The notes beneath the pieces were generated by a model that did not search any database, was not told where the DNA came from, and saw only the letters and a program-made list of their open reading frames with translations. From contig LBYD01000002.1 of NCBI GenBank assembly GCA_000995965.1, positions 336,563 to 392,696 of the forward strand: DNA of 56,134 nt. The letters run 5' to 3'. Position numbers and translations under genes: made by a program. The number at the start of each line of letters is the position of its first letter. Position 1 is the stretch's first letter. Of the stretch, positions 50,378 through 55,763 are shown piece after piece. This DNA comes from Candidatus Moranbacteria bacterium GW2011_GWC2_40_12 (GTDB lineage: Bacteria; Patescibacteriota; Minisyncoccia; Moranbacterales; UBA11712).

Positions 50378-50408
50378 TTGACACGCTTTTCCAGCCTGCT
50401 ATTATAAT
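50378..50408 (+). promoter_or_regulatory. rRNA promoter candidate
   Basis: TTGACA at 50378-50383. TATTAT at 50400-50405 (16-nt spacer) overlaps TATAAT at 50403-50408. Confidence 0.6.
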
Positions 50409-50654: not shown

Positions 50655-50935
50655 AACCCCGACGCGAGGTCGGGGTAAACAATCGCAAGTTTTTGTGGTT
50701 GTCCTGGTCCCGACGCAAGTCGGGAAAAGTGCTAAGAGTCTATTCGCCTTTTTTCTCTCCGACCTTGCGTCGGAGCAAGAAAAAAGAGTGCCCCGACATC
50801 ACGTCGGGGCTCAACAAAAAGAAATTATTTTCTTTTATATCGCAATCAGTTAAACTTCTATCAAAAAGTTTGAGGATTGCGGGGTGAGTAAAGCAATCTT
50901 CGCGATGCCCGGTCATGCGACCGGGCTCAATAAGA
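50655..50935 (+). repeat. Five related hairpins (CCCGAC-loop-GTCGGG) in the 16S leader
   Basis: ccccgac-gcgag-gtcgggg, tcccgac-gcaa-gtcggga, ctccgac-cttgc-gtcggag, gccccgac-atcac-gtcggggc, gcccggtc-atgc-gaccgggc. Confidence 0.7.
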
Positions 50936-50957
50936 ATTCGCTTCACTCATTCTTTTT

Positions 50958-50997
<40 letters not shown>

Positions 50998-51257
50998 GAT
51001 AAGGCATGCAAGTCGAGGGCCGATTTTGATCGGCCCGGCAAACGGGTTAGTAACGCATAGGAACGTACCCTCGAGTCTCGAATAATCCCTCGAAAGGGGG
51101 AATAATGCGAGATAGTTCTCTTCGGAGTAAAGATTTATCGCTTGAGGAGCGGCCTGTGTCCTATCAGCTTGTTGGCGGGGTAAAGGCCCACCAAGGCTAT
51201 GACGGGTAGGGGATGTGAGAGCATGATCCCCAACATTGGGACTGAGACACTGCCCAA

Positions 51258-51288
<31 letters not shown>

Positions 51289-51332
51289 CGGCAATGGGCG
51301 AAAGCCTGACCGAGCGACGCCGCGTGGAGGAT

Positions 51333-51363
<31 letters not shown>

Positions 51364-51373
51364 AGGGAAGAAA

Positions 51374-51776
51374 CCGTGTTCAGCACGGAGAATCCAATTA
51401 CACTCCGCCTCATCGGCGGAAACTTTAGGAATTGTGTTGAGAAAAAATGTTTTGATCTTTTTTAGGGAGGAATAAACAATGGCCGCCCAAAGTCTTGAGA
51501 TTACGGCAAAAACAGAAGAGGCTTTAGAAAAAGAAGTCAACCATCGTGTCGAGTTTGCGCCCCAAATTGGCCGTCGGGTTACTGGTGTGCAGTTTATGAA
51601 AACACTGGCTGCCGATGGGAACCACAGGGCTATACTCACGATCGAAGGAGGATGTTGCTGCTAAAAAACAATTCCCCTAAATCGATTCAAGCGAGATTGC
51701 GAACCTGCTTTCTCGCAATCTCAACTCAATTCCTAAAAAGAAAAAAGTGTAATTGACGATTCCGTGTTGGATACGG
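51374..51776 (+). other. Roughly 400-nt insertion (expansion or intervening sequence) in the V3 helix of the 16S gene
   Basis: It lies between GCAAGGGAAGAAA and CTGACGGTACCTTGC. The flanks pair as gagaatccaattacac / gtgtaattgacgattc and ctttaggaattgtgttgaga / tctcaactcaattcctaaaaag. Confidence 0.8.
51479..51664 (+). CDS. Candidate 61-aa protein encoded inside the 16S V3 insertion
   Basis: GGGAGG at 51465-51470, 8 nt before the ATG. The sequence is MAAQSLEITAKTEEALEKEVNHRVEFAPQIGRRVTGVQFMKTLAADGNHRAILTIEGGCCC. No family recognised. Confidence 0.4.
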   Translation: MAAQSLEITAKTEEALEKEVNHRVEFAPQIGRRVTGVQFMKTLAADGNHRAILTIEGGCCC

Positions 51777-52187
51777 CTGACGGTACCTTGCGAATAAGAG
51801 GTTGCTAACTCTGTGCCAGCAGCAGCGGTAATACAGAGACCTCAAGCGTTATCCGGATTTATTGGGCGTAAAGCGTGTGTAGGTGGCGATGATAGTCAGA
51901 TGTCAAATTCCAGCGCTCAACGTTGGAGCTGCATCTGAAACGTCATCACTAGAGGCAAGTAGAGGCTCATGGAACATATGGTGTAGCAGTGAAATGCGTT
52001 GATATCATATGGAACGCCAAAGGAGAAGTCAGTGAGCTGGGCTTTGCCTGACACTGAGACACGAAAGCGTGGGTAGCGAACGGGATTAGATACCCCGGTA
52101 GTCCACGCCCTAAACGTTGCCAACTAGGTCTTGGAAGTATCGACCCTTTCAGGACCGTAGCTAACGCGTTAAGTTGGCCGCCTGGGA

Positions 52188-52219
<32 letters not shown>

Positions 52220-52341
52220 AGACGGGGACCCGCACAAGCGGTGGAGCACGCGGTTCAATTCGTCAACAAGCGAGGAACCTCACCAGGGCTTGAAATCCTA
52301 CTGCAAATCCCGAGAAATCGGGACTTCTTCGAGAGTGTAGG

Positions 52342-52372
<31 letters not shown>

Positions 52373-52599
52373 CCGTGAGGTGTTCCGTTAAGTCGGGAAA
52401 CGAGCGCAACCCCTGTCGAGTGTTACTTATGTCACTCGAGACTGCCCAGCCCAGAGTTTTCGAATCATCGAAAATTTCGGGCTGGGAGGAAGGTGGGGAT
52501 GACGTCAAATCAGCATGGCCCTCTGACGCCCTGGGCGACACGCATGCTACAATGGCCGGTACAATGGGTTGCCAAACCGCGAGGTGGAGCCAATCCCAT

Positions 52600-52647
<48 letters not shown>

Positions 52648-52798
52648 CCGGAATCGCTAGTAATCGTGAATCAGCCATGTCACGGTGAATACGTTCTCGG
52701 GTCTTGTACTCACCGCCCGTCACACCAAGAGAGTCGGTAATACCCAAAGTGCCACGCAAGTGGTCCTACGGTAGGATCGATAATAAGGGTGAAGTCGT

Positions 52799-53566
52799 AA
52801 ATTTGTTGCGACCTCAAAGAGCAATCTTTGAGAAAAACCTGACTATATGCTGGAAACCCTGTGTATCTTGTGCTACTCATGATAATATATTTATATGAGT
52901 GAAAAAGCTTCAAGTGCAGGCAATCAGCAGGGAAGAGCATCTTTCGCAAGAAAGGGAAAACTCCCCTCAGAGACTACACGTCAGGCGCCTTTCTCTGAAA
53001 AAGAAATAAAGGCTTATCTTTTAGGTGCATTGCACGATGCAACTTTCAGCAGCAATCGAAGATTTCGGTTTTCTCAAAAGGGAACCGGATGGTTGAAATT
53101 TCTTCAAATGCTGTTTAGAAGAATTGGTTATAAATCTTGGGTTTATAAGGAAGGTAAAACCAGATCCGTATATGTTCTTGAAACTTTAGCGAAATTCTTG
53201 GATTTTGAGTTTAATCCTTTGAATCTGAAGTCAAGACAAGAAAAGATCGGATACATTCGAGGTTTTTTCGATGCCGAAGGTGGCATTCCAAAAAACGGAA
53301 AAAGGTTTTACATTCAACTAGTGCAATCAAACAAGAAAAAACTTCAGCAAATCAAGAAAGTCTTGAAAAATCTGGAAATCGAAACAGGAAAAATACACAA
53401 TCCAAGCTACAGGGTGGATCCTAAATATTGGAGAATGTATGTCCCTGCAAATTACCAGAAAAAATTTGCTAAAGTGATAAATTCTTGGCATCCGAAAAAG
53501 ACAAAAGTATTCAGAGAGAGGATGATGATATAGTCCATGCCTTATAGCGATATAGGGAGAAACATG
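52799..53566 (+). mobile_element. Intron-like insertion (group I-like boundaries) in the 16S 3' domain, carrying a LAGLIDADG ORF
   Basis: It splits the universal GTCGTAACAAGG. With the boundary set as GTCGT|aaattt...acatg|AACAAGG, the 5' exon ends in U and the insert ends in G. Confidence 0.65.
52895..53533 (+). CDS. LAGLIDADG homing endonuclease (double motif)
   Basis: YLLGALHDATFS and IRGFFDAEGGIP motifs. 212 aa, located inside the 16S insertion. Confidence 0.85.
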   Translation: MSEKASSAGNQQGRASFARKGKLPSETTRQAPFSEKEIKAYLLGALHDATFSSNRRFRFSQKGTGWLKFLQMLFRRIGYKSWVYKEGKTRSVYVLETLAKFLDFEFNPLNLKSRQEKIGYIRGFFDAEGGIPKNGKRFYIQLVQSNKKKLQQIKKVLKNLEIETGKIHNPSYRVDPKYWRMYVPANYQKKFAKVINSWHPKKTKVFRERMMI

Positions 53567-53604
53567 AACAAGGCATCCGTAGCGGAAGCTGTGGATGGAT
53601 CACC

Positions 53605-53668
53605 TCCTTTCTAGGGAGATACGGTTGAGAACTCCGATTTATCGGAGTATAAAACCCATATGGTCGTT
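53605..53668 (+). repeat. Direct repeat copy 1 (last 8 nt of the 16S gene plus the start of the spacer)
   Basis: tcctttctagggagat-acggttgagaactccgatttatcggagtataaaacccatatggtcgtt. Weaker similarity continues to about 53764. Confidence 0.8.
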
Positions 53669-53876: not shown

Positions 53877-53930
53877 GCTTTGAAAGCTAAATAGCTTTTA
53901 TTTACCAACTATTTCAGGAGGTGAGGGCAA

Positions 53931-54146
53931 ATGAACCCCATACAAAAATTTTTATGGACTGTAGGCTTGTTGATTTTGGCTCTTATCCCAACCTGGTTTT
54001 TTCTGGGGTTTCGCAGCTTGCTCGCACCCTCAGGATTTTTCCAGAACCTCTTCGTTTTTGGGCTGGGTTTCTATTTCCTCGGTGTGATACAATTAATCCT
54101 GCTCATTATTTGGCTCATCTTTGCATTTCACATTTGCACTGATTAA
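53931..54146 (+). CDS. Small two-TM membrane protein (cassette gene 1)
   Basis: AGGAGG lies 7 nt upstream. The sequence is MNPIQKFLWTVGLLILALIPTWFFLGF...GLGFYFLGVIQLILLIIWLIFAF. Confidence 0.55.
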   Translation: MNPIQKFLWTVGLLILALIPTWFFLGFRSLLAPSGFFQNLFVFGLGFYFLGVIQLILLIIWLIFAFHICTD

Positions 54147-54167
54147 AGAAATGTCTCAGGAGGACAG

Positions 54168-54530
54168 ATGCCAGATAAAATCGTGACTGTGGAAAAGGAC
54201 GGTGAGACATATCTCATCAAAAATTTGGAACACAGACTGGAGCCGAAATTTTTGGCTCGTAATCCCAAAGACGGAGAATTGTTCCTGCTATTGGGGGATA
54301 ATGGAACTTATGCTCTTTTTAAGGGAACCGAAAAGAAAGGTCTAAGGATTTGCTCTCCTAAACACGTTCAGCTCTTTGGCGATTGCTTCGCCTTTATGTT
54401 CGAGCAGGACGGAAGAGTTGGAGAAATAACAGACCCTGACGACCTGGACAGCGGAAGGAAGCCCATTTTTAATGATTTCGGAAGGGGAATGAAAAAACTG
54501 GACGTTCTGCCGCATAAGGTGGTTAAGTAA
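54168..54530 (+). CDS. Hypothetical soluble 120-aa protein (cassette gene 2)
   Basis: AGGAGG lies 5 nt upstream. No motif recognised. Followed by the hairpin aaagcac...gtgcttt plus a T tract (54558-54596). Confidence 0.55.
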   Translation: MPDKIVTVEKDGETYLIKNLEHRLEPKFLARNPKDGELFLLLGDNGTYALFKGTEKKGLRICSPKHVQLFGDCFAFMFEQDGRVGEITDPDDLDSGRKPIFNDFGRGMKKLDVLPHKVVK

Positions 54531-54608: not shown

Positions 54609-54709
54609 TCCTTTCTAGGGAGATATTTATCCCGTAGTAAAGCATCAGCTTTTACTACTGGGACGGTTGAGAACTCCGATTTATCGGAGTATAAACCCAC
54701 ACGGTCGTT
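54609..54709 (+). repeat. Direct repeat copy 2 (contains an extra 38-nt hairpin)
   Basis: tcctttctagggagat[atttatcccgtagtaaagcatcagcttttactactggg]acggttgagaactccgatttatcggagtataaacccacacggtcgtt. Similarity continues to about 54748 (gcatcaggacaaccgcaaaaacttgtaa against gcacagggcaaccacaaaagtttgcaa). Confidence 0.8.
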
Positions 54710-54821: not shown

Positions 54822-55763
54822 ATGTTCGAAAAAACCGAAAAAACCTCCCTAGAAGCGAGTGCGTTCCAGGGAGTAGCCCAAAATGAGGCAAAAAACATGA
54901 GTGAGCGGATCGAAGACTTTCTAGAGTATTCGCGCTACGAATTAAACTTCTCGCCGGTAACGATCATAAAATATCGTGATTCTTTGCGAAGCATGATAAA
55001 AGATTTGGGGGATAAGTCGGTGGAACAATACGAAGTTCAAGAGTTTGTGAAAATGAAGCGTTTAATGATGGACAGGGGATTGAGCGAAGCAAGAATATCA
55101 GGCGTGGTTTATGCGGTGAGAAGTTTTTTGCTATATTGCAAAAGTTTTTTGAAGCTTGAAGTTTTGGAACCCAAACAAATACGTCCGCCGAAAAGATTTA
55201 AGCGAGAGGTAATATTTCTCACGAAAGAGGAAATCGAAGCTTTTATAAATACAATCAATATAAAAAGATGGAATGGTTTGCGATTTAGGACACTGGTTGA
55301 GGTTCTTTTAGGAACAGGGATGAGAATAGGGGAAGTTTTATCACTAAATCGCAAAACTATCATCTGGGAAAAAAGGGAAGCGAAAATTATTGGCAAAGGC
55401 AATAAAGAAAGAACGGTCTTTTTCACGAAAAGATCGCTTGAATGGATCACCAAGTATCTCGAGAGGCGAAACGATACGCACGAGGCAATATTTGTAACCA
55501 AGGCGCCAATCAACCGGCTTGCAGTGGCTGACGTCTGGCGATTTTTTGATAGGCACCGGAAATTGGCAAAAATAGACAAAAAGCTCACGCCCCATATTCT
55601 TCGTCATACCGTCGCCACAAATTTAGTTTTCAATGGTTGCCCAATTGTTCACGTCAAAGAGATTTTGGGTCATGAAAGGCTGGATACGACCTGCAAATAT
55701 TATCTAGGCGTGGACAAGGAGAAGGCAAAAAAGGCACATAAGCAGTTTTTGAATTTTATTTGA
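54822..55763 (+). CDS. Tyrosine recombinase (XerC/XerD / phage-integrase family)
   Basis: SAM-like N-terminal domain (FLEYSRYELNFSPVTIIKYRDSL). GTGMRIGEVLSL, HILRHTVATNL, LGHERLDTTCKYY. The true start may be Met-26 (54897). Confidence 0.85.
   Translation: MFEKTEKTSLEASAFQGVAQNEAKNMSERIEDFLEYSRYELNFSPVTIIKYRDSLRSMIKDLGDKSVEQYEVQEFVKMKRLMMDRGLSEARISGVVYAVRSFLLYCKSFLKLEVLEPKQIRPPKRFKREVIFLTKEEIEAFINTINIKRWNGLRFRTLVEVLLGTGMRIGEVLSLNRKTIIWEKREAKIIGKGNKERTVFFTKRSLEWITKYLERRNDTHEAIFVTKAPINRLAVADVWRFFDRHRKLAKIDKKLTPHILRHTVATNLVFNGCPIVHVKEILGHERLDTTCKYYLGVDKEKAKKAHKQFLNFI

Follow-up and report, generated by a model that had tools for sequence, protein, structure and literature searches.

We describe an extension of helix 17 in the 16S ribosomal RNA (rRNA) gene of Candidatus Moranbacteria bacterium GW2011_GWC2_40_12, a member of the Candidate Phyla Radiation (CPR). 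The extension adds approximately 400 bases to the gene and contains an open reading frame (ORF) of 61 codons. In our opinion this ORF is probably one allele of a polymorphic small-gene cassette, which resides in an intervening-sequence-like extension of helix 17 in 16S rRNA genes of Moranbacteria. The element has a definite anatomy, its scaffold is conserved from locus to locus, its cargos replace one another, and every cargo combines an ORF with a Shine-Dalgarno sequence. The cargo ORFs are very likely real genes, as judged by their conserved architecture and not by conservation of their sequences. All coordinates below are positions in the window, i.e., the whole stretch of 56,134 nucleotides (nt) of contig LBYD01000002.1 that was analyzed.

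Protein genes embedded in bacterial rRNA have so far been treated as homing endonucleases or as members of the enigmatic S23p/IVP family. The element of the window differs from both in that one conserved RNA scaffold holds interchangeable orphan genes with canonical translation signals. If the cargos are expressed, rRNA operons of ultrasmall host-dependent bacteria would double as a platform from which strain-specific accessory proteins are produced, perhaps proteins with a part in conflict or host interaction. Such expression would be a natural case of an rRNA precursor that contains a functional mRNA, and would also provide a concrete system for the question whether ORFs of intervening sequences are ever translated, which has been open since the discoveries in Leptospira and Coxiella. 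Gene callers and rRNA maskers systematically hide such genes. The feature of the window is real, its coding interpretation is largely right, and it merits experimental follow-up.

Anatomy of the helix 17 element

The match to the bacterial 16S rRNA model of Rfam (1332 bits) spans 50952-52845. The loop of helix 17 (variable region V3) accounts for 392 unaligned bases in this alignment, placed between positions 458 and 464 of the model. The flanks of the extra sequence are inverted repeats: 51374-51404 matches 51746-51776, and 51424-51442 matches 51719-51737, the latter pair being 95% complementary. The fold predicted for the 431-nt region has an energy of -153 kcal/mol (z = -7.5 versus shuffles). 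These three results bear out the original prediction, made by a model from the letters of the window alone, that an insert with helical flanks lies in V3. The same prediction ascribed a helix of about 35 base pairs (bp) to the insert. Both arms do exist, but the basal 15-17 bp (CCGTGTTCAGCACGG / CCGTGTTGGATACGG) are the native helix 17 of the lineage. This basal helix is common to alleles that do not have the rest of the element (loci L134 and L084), thus the insert proper occupies approximately 51391-51759.

The predicted ORF is present at 51479-51664, with GGGAGG 8 nt upstream. The CCUCC tail to which this motif was said to be complementary is real as well. It belongs to the true 3' end of the 16S rRNA, GGATCACCTCCTTTCT (approximately 53597-53612), beyond a group I intron (Rfam RF00028, 52789-53163) that carries a LAGLIDADG_3 ORF (52895-53533, 3.6e-15). 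We rejected the identification of the helix 17 insert itself as a group I or group II intron: this downstream intron is the only one that Rfam finds, and a search of 51374-51776 with E-values up to 1 gave no family and no model of either intron group. The features are as follows.

50378-50405, + strand: candidate rRNA promoter TTGACA-16-TATTAT, TG-extended, 11/12 match
50952-53612, + strand: 16S rRNA gene (Rfam RF00177, 1332 bits), interrupted by the helix 17 element and by the group I intron near the 3' end
51374-51403, + strand: 5' arm of stem P1; the first 15-17 nt are the native helix 17 stem of the lineage, common to the empty alleles L134 and L084
51404-51420, + strand: mini-hairpin P1a, TCCGCCTCATCGGCGGA; optional, absent in L132, L135 and L136
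51423-51442, + strand: 5' arm of stem P2, CTTTAGGAATTGTGTTGAGA; 95% complementary, pairs kept in seven variants, two pairs changed on both sides
51443-51464, + strand: A/U-rich leader, in which the variants agree in the A-run and the first bases that follow
51449-51690, + strand: replaceable cargo segment, without similarity to the cargos of other alleles; L136/L139 homology breaks near these ends
51465-51470, + strand: Shine-Dalgarno sequence GGGAGG; the ATG follows after 8 nt, and the complementary CCTCC is at 53603-53607
51479-51664, + strand: ATG ORF of 61 codons (MAAQSLEITAK...EGGCCC); the protein is an orphan, and its predicted fold is beta-alpha-beta-beta
51691-51722, + strand: hairpin P3, GAGATTGCGA-loop-TCGCAATCTC, 10/10 bp, conserved directly 3' of every cargo
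51719-51738, + strand: 3' arm of P2, TCTCAACTCAATTCCTAAAA, overlapping the final 4 nt of P3
51747-51776, + strand: 3' arm of P1, GTGTAATTGACGATTCCGTGTTGGATACGG; one-sided G.U/G-C changes in L132 and L135 preserve pairing
53603-53607, + strand: anti-Shine-Dalgarno CCUCC (CCTCC in DNA) in the 16S 3' end GGATCACCTCCTTTCT

P3 and P2 compete for the same TCTC. A second Shine-Dalgarno-like sequence, AAGGAGGA, lies in the last codons of the ORF (51644-51664) and abuts an ATG, which starts a frame of 34 codons (51652-51756) running through P3 and P2. Together, AAGGAGGA and the downstream ATG could be the remnant of a former cargo junction. On the minus strand, a GTG ORF of 125 codons (51262-51639) overlaps the insert and runs into conserved 16S sequence. 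We regard it as spurious, since the longest antisense ATG ORF within the cargo has only 6 codons.

One scaffold and seven cargos

We scanned a metagenome collection with the basal stem and found ten loci (designated below with L and a number), all of them in 16S rRNA genes 88-100% identical to that of the window. All ten share one scaffold. In P1, CCGTGTTCAGCACGGAGAATCCAATTACAC pairs with GTGTAATTGAnGATTCCGTGTTGGATrCGG; in P2, CTTTAGGAATTGTGTTGAGA pairs with TCTCAACTCAATTCCTAAAG; the mini-hairpin P1a is optional. P1 and P2 together make a helix of approximately 45 bp. An A-run and an A/U-rich leader lie 5' of the cargo, and the hairpin P3 (GCGAGATTGCGA-loop-TCGCAATCTC) lies 3' of it. The stretch from the leader to P3, approximately 240-380 nt, is wholly different from locus to locus.

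Seven cargos, including that of the window, were obtained, with ORFs of 61, 67, 82, 91, 96, 107, and 110 codons. Each of the seven has at least five of the six letters of AGGAGG 4-10 nt before the ATG and a single sense ORF that covers 74-91% of the cargo. The window ORF is the shortest and fills the least of its segment (74%). That seven cargos in a shared scaffold all keep a Shine-Dalgarno sequence, an ATG and one sense ORF supports the predicted protein gene residing within the rRNA gene. One of the cargos is on record in a Moranbacteria genome, as a “hypothetical protein”.

There are also alleles without an ORF. In the empty allele L134, P1 is closed by a short loop. The allele L084, from a Moraniibacteriota genome, is empty or a remnant: it has the basal stem of the window and only 81 extra bases.

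RNAalifold was applied to the seven scaffolds after removal of the cargo. It predicted 52 pairs that are kept across the seven variants; most of them are invariant, three are changed on both sides, and several switch between G.U and G-C or A-U. In P3 of L131, two T-A pairs are changed to U.G and G.U, so the pairing is kept in the sense RNA only. This pattern of substitutions argues that the scaffold is an RNA structure. At least five unrelated cargo families occupy this one conserved holder.

The original prediction had suggested looking for the window peptide in other CPR 16S insertions; identical copies were found but no diverged relative. The homologous inserts contain entirely different ORFs in place of a diverged copy, and this is itself the informative result.

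Coding evidence across the cargos

In dinucleotide shuffles of individual cargos, an ATG ORF of the observed length has a probability between 0.0005 and 0.019 (summed log10 P = -18.5). For ORF length and Shine-Dalgarno sequence jointly, P is at most 0.0007 for each cargo. The Shine-Dalgarno pattern used here matches 3.1% of randomly chosen genome positions and precedes only one of 30 long ORFs (at least 200 amino acids (aa), window 1-50300), and the others have A/T-rich leaders. Since Shine-Dalgarno sequences are rare before ordinary genes, their presence in seven of seven cargos is not a genome-wide property.

The 16S rRNA keeps its CCUCC tail although ordinary genes of the genome almost never have a Shine-Dalgarno sequence. 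Strong AGGAGG-type sites are found in the helix 17 cargos and before two small ORFs past the 16S rRNA gene (53917-53922 and 54155-54160).

We also used a codon-usage score trained on 38 genes of the window, which has modest power alone. In-frame scores are positive for all seven ORFs (approximately 0.17-0.23 per codon in six cases and 0.06 in one). For reference, real genes score approximately 0.21 and spurious ORFs in 16S rRNA no more than 0.10.

Homology extends over the full length of the L135 and L136 cargo proteins (29% identity, BLASTP E-value 3e-4, Smith-Waterman z = 8.3), therefore the reading frame was kept through deep divergence inside the scaffold. No other pair of cargos has significant similarity. 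Resemblances noticed by eye between the window peptide and the L135 and L136 proteins, and between the L137 and L138 proteins, are not significant and were discarded. A profile search with L135 and L136 gave a single new match, P0013 (locus L161), which comes from a low-coverage chimeric contig and was not accepted as a homologue. Searches of the cargos against Pfam, NCBIfam, PHROGs, PADLOC, and PDB sequences found nothing, nor did scans of viral contigs with two scaffold patterns.

The 61-residue peptide

The length of the window ORF taken alone is unremarkable, since 22% of dinucleotide shuffles of the whole insert contain a + strand ORF of 61 codons or more. When only the cargo segment is shuffled, an ATG ORF that long appears in 1.9% of cases, and together with a Shine-Dalgarno sequence in approximately 0.05%. 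The 61-codon frame is very probably a real small-protein gene.

AlphaFold2 run without an alignment predicts a compact fold (predicted local distance difference test (pLDDT) 79.6, predicted template modeling score (pTM) 0.63; no more than two of the five models reach high confidence). The model has strands at residues 3-10, 32-40, and 49-57 and a helix at residues 13-30, and thus reproduces the strand-helix-strand-strand pattern proposed earlier from the sequence. Foldseek returned only generic small alpha/beta look-alikes of this model, none with an E-value of 0.001 or lower. Matches to NusE/S10 (TM-score 0.76, E-value 0.06) and to small phage proteins of the Cse60/DUF1737-like kind (E-value 0.007) were not taken as homology.

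The peptide has no match in Pfam or NCBIfam. A word-indexed search among 5.8 billion protein clusters found only the peptide itself. HMMER against 1.84 billion representatives pointed to six repeat proteins (SprB/Ig, TPR, DUF4082); they were rejected as homologues because their scores are inflated by summed weak repeat matches.

At least 30 contigs encode exactly this peptide. Ten copies of the ORF were retrieved and show 100% identity, and the seven copies of the 403-nt insert that were aligned in full are likewise identical. In L008 the flanking 16S sequence has 12 mismatches and two gaps over approximately 1026 nt, and the 403-nt insert has no differences. With zero variation within the allele, neither the ratio of nonsynonymous to synonymous substitution rates (dN/dS) nor frame conservation in diverged copies is measurable.

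Exchange of cargos between backgrounds

Two loci of one sample, L006 with the window cargo and L139 with the 82-aa cargo, share 99.07% identity along 2996 nt that comprise upstream genes and the 16S rRNA gene. The 82-aa cargo is also found in the window's own background (L144, 98.97% identical over 2.5 kb including murD). Thus both cargos occur in both backgrounds. In addition, copies of the window cargo are 100% identical between backgrounds that have only 74% identity in murD. The presence of the same cargo in different 16S backgrounds means that cargos have been exchanged. Because the cargos have no similarity and their flanks are nearly identical, replacement by recombination is the only simple explanation, and divergence in place does not fit. 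Independent assemblies contain the same combinations of allele and background, and the switch in L144 takes place within approximately 36 nt, far below the assembler k-mer.

Helix 17 in other CPR bacteria

A scan of a genome collection with a helix-18 signature yielded 120 CPR 16S rRNA genes, none with an insert similar to that of the window. Helix 17 is very short in nearly all of them: the 341-to-515 distance is approximately 151 nt, versus 552 nt in the window.

A few of these genes carry stem-flanked inserts of other kinds in helix 17. In L060 (Magasanikbacteria) the insert encodes a 77-aa GIY-YIG protein (1.3e-11), in L090 a 115-aa 23S_rRNA_IVP protein (3.1e-24), and in L087 it is 151 nt long, repeat-rich, and without an ORF. 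The ORFs of L060 and L090 are not preceded by a strong Shine-Dalgarno sequence. Helix 17 is a general insertion hot spot in CPR.

Comparison with known systems

The closest likeness is to rRNA intervening sequences with an ORF, known from 23S helices 45 and 25 (Coxiella and Leptospira, among others). In these, an additional helix stands in place of the tip of an rRNA helix, a long flanking stem carries an ORF at its apex, the distribution is sporadic, and the sequences spread horizontally. Likewise, the window has an extended flanking stem and extra sequence at the apical loop of helix 17 that is absent from close relatives. ORFs of the 23S_rRNA_IVP family also occur in CPR 16S insertions (PMC11270868), and one is at this very site in L090. 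We rejected membership of the window peptide in S23p/23S_rRNA_IVP (PF05635): it has no Pfam or NCBIfam match, although the L090 control is found, and its predicted beta-alpha-beta-beta fold differs from the four-helix bundle of that family. The holder differs from known intervening sequences in its polymorphic cargo, with at least five unrelated families, and in its dedicated conserved 3' hairpin P3. Moreover, the S23p of Coxiella needs an engineered ribosome binding site and seems to be untranslated (PMC4990558), whereas the Moranbacteria cargos all have a strong Shine-Dalgarno sequence.

CPR rRNA genes also carry homing endonuclease insertions and group I and group II introns (Brown 2015; Tsurumaki 2024, PMC11270868). 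They resemble the present case as protein genes in CPR rRNA with a patchy distribution, and the window 16S rRNA gene itself holds the group I intron described above. The prediction that the 61-codon ORF is not a homing endonuclease stands: profile searches recognized no LAGLIDADG, GIY-YIG, HNH, or PD-(D/E)xK domain in any of the seven cargos, and the positive controls, the GIY-YIG protein of L060 and the LAGLIDADG_3 ORF of the window, were detected. The 2024 survey annotated only ORFs with Pfam domains and listed 139 of 378 16S insertions as having no intron hit and no annotated ORF (PMC11270868). The window element falls into that class.

Integron cassettes are similar in that promoterless, unrelated, variable ORFs, each with its own ribosome binding site and followed by a conserved hairpin, depend on one strong upstream promoter and are exchanged between genomes. 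In contrast to an integron, helix 17 is a single slot without an array or a demonstrated attI/attC architecture or IntI, and its conserved hairpin pairs as sense-strand RNA through G.U. The tyrosine recombinase located 3 kb downstream in the window (54822-55763) is not seen downstream of the 16S rRNA gene in L141 and L143. The resemblance is probably in logic only.

Peptides encoded in rRNA, such as the pentapeptide of Escherichia coli 23S rRNA and the mitochondrial humanin and MOTS-c, are translated or claimed to be so. They are tiny and lie within functional rRNA, whereas the cargos have 61-110 codons, a canonical Shine-Dalgarno sequence, and a place in a dispensable, probably excised insertion. 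A search of the open-access literature gave no account of interchangeable Shine-Dalgarno-led ORFs in a conserved holder. The arrangement seems to be a new variant of the intervening-sequence-with-ORF theme.

Proposed mechanism

We suggest that P1 and P2, the A/U-rich leader and the 3' hairpin P3 make up a holder. Its slot would receive a cargo with a strong Shine-Dalgarno sequence, an ATG and one ORF of 61-110 codons, unrelated between strains or species, and would be empty in some of them. The simplest route of cargo exchange would be homologous recombination in the conserved scaffold and the 16S flanks.

No promoter-like site was found on the + strand of the insert. Upstream of the 16S rRNA gene there is a single strong candidate, TTGACA-16-TATTAT, at a distance of approximately 570 nt. 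The cassette would thus have no promoter of its own and would be transcribed within the pre-16S rRNA from the rRNA promoter. RNase III may then cut the P1/P2 helix and remove the element, leaving a mature 16S rRNA that is probably fragmented. Excision as a mini-mRNA by an RNase III-type enzyme is plausible given the conserved helix of approximately 45 bp and the cases in the literature. Removal of CPR rRNA insertions from transcripts is reported in a passage of PMC11270868 that cites Brown 2015, and the ORF-bearing 23S intervening sequence of Coxiella is excised by RNase III without religation (PMC4990558). The ORF could be translated from the precursor or from a released fragment of approximately 300-370 nt through Shine-Dalgarno/anti-Shine-Dalgarno pairing, and P3 could serve as a 3' stabilizer or a processing mark.

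The allelic diversity of the cargo proteins, their clonal spread across backgrounds, and their orphan status suggest an accessory or conflict-type role and not a housekeeping one. A further reading, to which we assign somewhat less than an even chance, is that helix 17 is a dedicated expression slot. The strongest promoter of the cell and RNase III would together release a Shine-Dalgarno-led mini-mRNA alongside ribosome synthesis, and small accessory genes, unrelated to one another, would be swapped in this slot between strains and species, much as in a one-slot integron embedded in rRNA. We are equally tentative about a companion idea, that the strong Shine-Dalgarno sequence marks a separate translation regime for the cassettes.

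Several observations weigh against the polymorphic cassette. The window peptide and the other cargos are orphans, with no homologue or family match. Three alleles (window, 82-aa, and 67-aa) are clonal, with no nucleotide differences among ten contigs each, hence the cargo alleles give no dN/dS support. The AlphaFold2 model of the L138 cargo has low confidence (pLDDT 56) and is unusable. In predicted folds, the unpaired probability of the Shine-Dalgarno/AUG region is 0.36-0.57, which is moderate and not decisive. No RNase III gene was found in the window of approximately 56 kb and the fragments, a scope at which this is uninformative. The ORF in the Coxiella intervening sequence is decaying and apparently untranslated in vivo (PMC4990558). 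Finally, metagenome assemblies of rRNA are prone to chimeras, and some combinations of allele and background could be artefacts; the mosaic pattern of single-nucleotide polymorphisms (SNPs) in the 16S rRNA genes is relevant to this risk. In L001 (2940-2975) and L161 (1040-1260) the cargo is joined to unrelated DNA exactly where the 5' arm of P2, (G)TTGAGAAAAAA, ends. One of these two junctions truncates a methyltransferase gene, and the other is a 205-nt piece of cargo in an AT-rich contig with approximately 1x coverage. Both are probably chimeras of assembly or amplification, but they share a breakpoint at the boundary between scaffold and cargo.

Alternative explanations

Translation of the ORF might act in cis, the peptide being irrelevant. 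A ribosome running into P3 and P2 would open the helix and time or license pre-16S processing, as in a leader-peptide or checkpoint-type device, for which only the Shine-Dalgarno sequence, the open frame, and its end point matter. This agrees with the conservation of the Shine-Dalgarno sequence, the ATG, and a frame ending near P3 while the peptide sequence is not conserved, with the competition of P3 and P2, and with the lack of a recognizable family for any cargo. The stop codon lies only 4-6 nt before P3 in L135, L137, and L138, which favors such a device, but 26-40 nt from it in the window and L136. We consider a cis role unlikely. The cargos are replaced wholesale and do not drift, each being 100% identical across backgrounds; the L135/L136 similarity is at the protein level; codon usage is gene-like; the predicted fold of the 61-aa peptide is compact and confident; and the empty alleles function without any ORF.

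A slightly lower probability is given to the cargo proteins being selfish mobility factors, i.e., new tiny nucleases or recombination helpers in a homing cycle of gain, decay, and loss. Such a cycle agrees with identical cargos in divergent backgrounds, with the empty and remnant alleles L134 and L084, and with the GIY-YIG ORF at the same site in other CPR. The 16S rRNA genes are indeed rich in homing elements (the LAGLIDADG ORF of the window; GIY-YIG plus LAGLIDADG_1 ORFs in L141). However, none of the seven cargos has a nuclease motif or a family match, at 61-110 aa they are smaller than most homing endonucleases, and at least five unrelated families would all need to be nucleases. The fold of the 61-aa peptide is like generic small alpha/beta domains and not like nucleases. 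Exchange can also be explained by co-conversion with neighboring endonuclease-bearing insertions or by plain homologous recombination.

It is improbable that the ORF is a chance or decaying frame and the insert a non-coding intervening sequence or an expansion of helix 17. The frequency of 61-codon ORFs in whole-insert shuffles allows it, as do the lack of a homologue and of sequence variation in which selection could be tested. The window cargo is also the shortest and fills its segment least, spurious 16S ORFs can have positive codon scores, and the decaying Coxiella ORF is a precedent (PMC4990558). A chance frame is nevertheless difficult to reconcile with a Shine-Dalgarno sequence, an ATG, and a sense ORF in all seven cargos of a genome where such sites are rare, with a joint shuffle probability of approximately 0.0005 for the window cargo, with the confident fold prediction, or with an element of 403 nt that stays unchanged in L008 between diverged flanks.

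Bacteria differ in the length of the helix 17 tip, which is exposed to solvent. The element might be an expansion segment that stays in the mature 30S subunit, with the ORF as part of a functioning ribosome whether translated or not. We hold this to be more improbable still: a near-perfect helix of approximately 45 bp is a classical RNase III substrate, close relatives manage with a very short helix 17 (151 versus 552 nt between 341 and 515), and the passage of PMC11270868 cited above (after Brown 2015) reports CPR rRNA insertions to be absent from transcripts.

The suggestion that the C-terminal Gly-Gly-Cys-Cys-Cys (GGCCC) tail defines a precursor of a ribosomally synthesized and post-translationally modified peptide (RiPP), or a metal-binding peptide, can practically be dismissed: none of the six other cargos has such a tail or a common core, the peptide matches no RiPP or maturase family in Pfam or NCBIfam, its predicted fold is globular over residues 3-57 and not a leader plus core, the Gly-Gly codons (GGA-GGA) belong to the internal Shine-Dalgarno-like AAGGAGGA, and the neighbors of the insert (16S exons, the LAGLIDADG ORF, two small ORFs, and an integrase) include no maturase, as had been noted from the start.

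Other features of the 16S rRNA gene and its surroundings

A repeat of the 3' end of the 16S rRNA gene and the beginning of the spacer (53605-53656) lies approximately 1 kb downstream (54609-54698), with 36 nt at 97% identity plus TCCTTTCTAGGGAGATA. The repeats enclose two small Shine-Dalgarno-led ORFs without a family match (53933-54148 and 54168-54530). These are followed by a tyrosine recombinase (54822-55763; Phage_integrase, 8.5e-39). The repeats, the two ORFs, and the recombinase look like a small element integrated in the spacer.

In related Moranbacteria, the 16S rRNA gene has an insert with a GIY-YIG ORF near its 5' end (approximately at window 51016/51037; L006, L008, L139, L141). Further 3', LAGLIDADG_1 or LAGLIDADG_2 ORFs take the place of the LAGLIDADG_3 intron of the window (L141, 4153-4734; L151, 3115-3741). 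The mosaic SNP pattern between Moranbacteria 16S alleles fits frequent recombination or co-conversion in the gene.

Small GC-rich hairpins, of which CCCGACGCAAGTCGGG, TCCGCCTCATCGGCGGA, and GGATCCCGGATCAAGTCCGGGATGAC are examples, lie at several places. In the 16S leader (50700-50930) they occur repeatedly. They are also found as optional indels of the scaffold (51404-51420, and the 3' scaffold of L132, L137, and L138) and inside another 16S helix of a related B-type gene, near window 51135. These hairpins look like miniature mobile hairpin elements.

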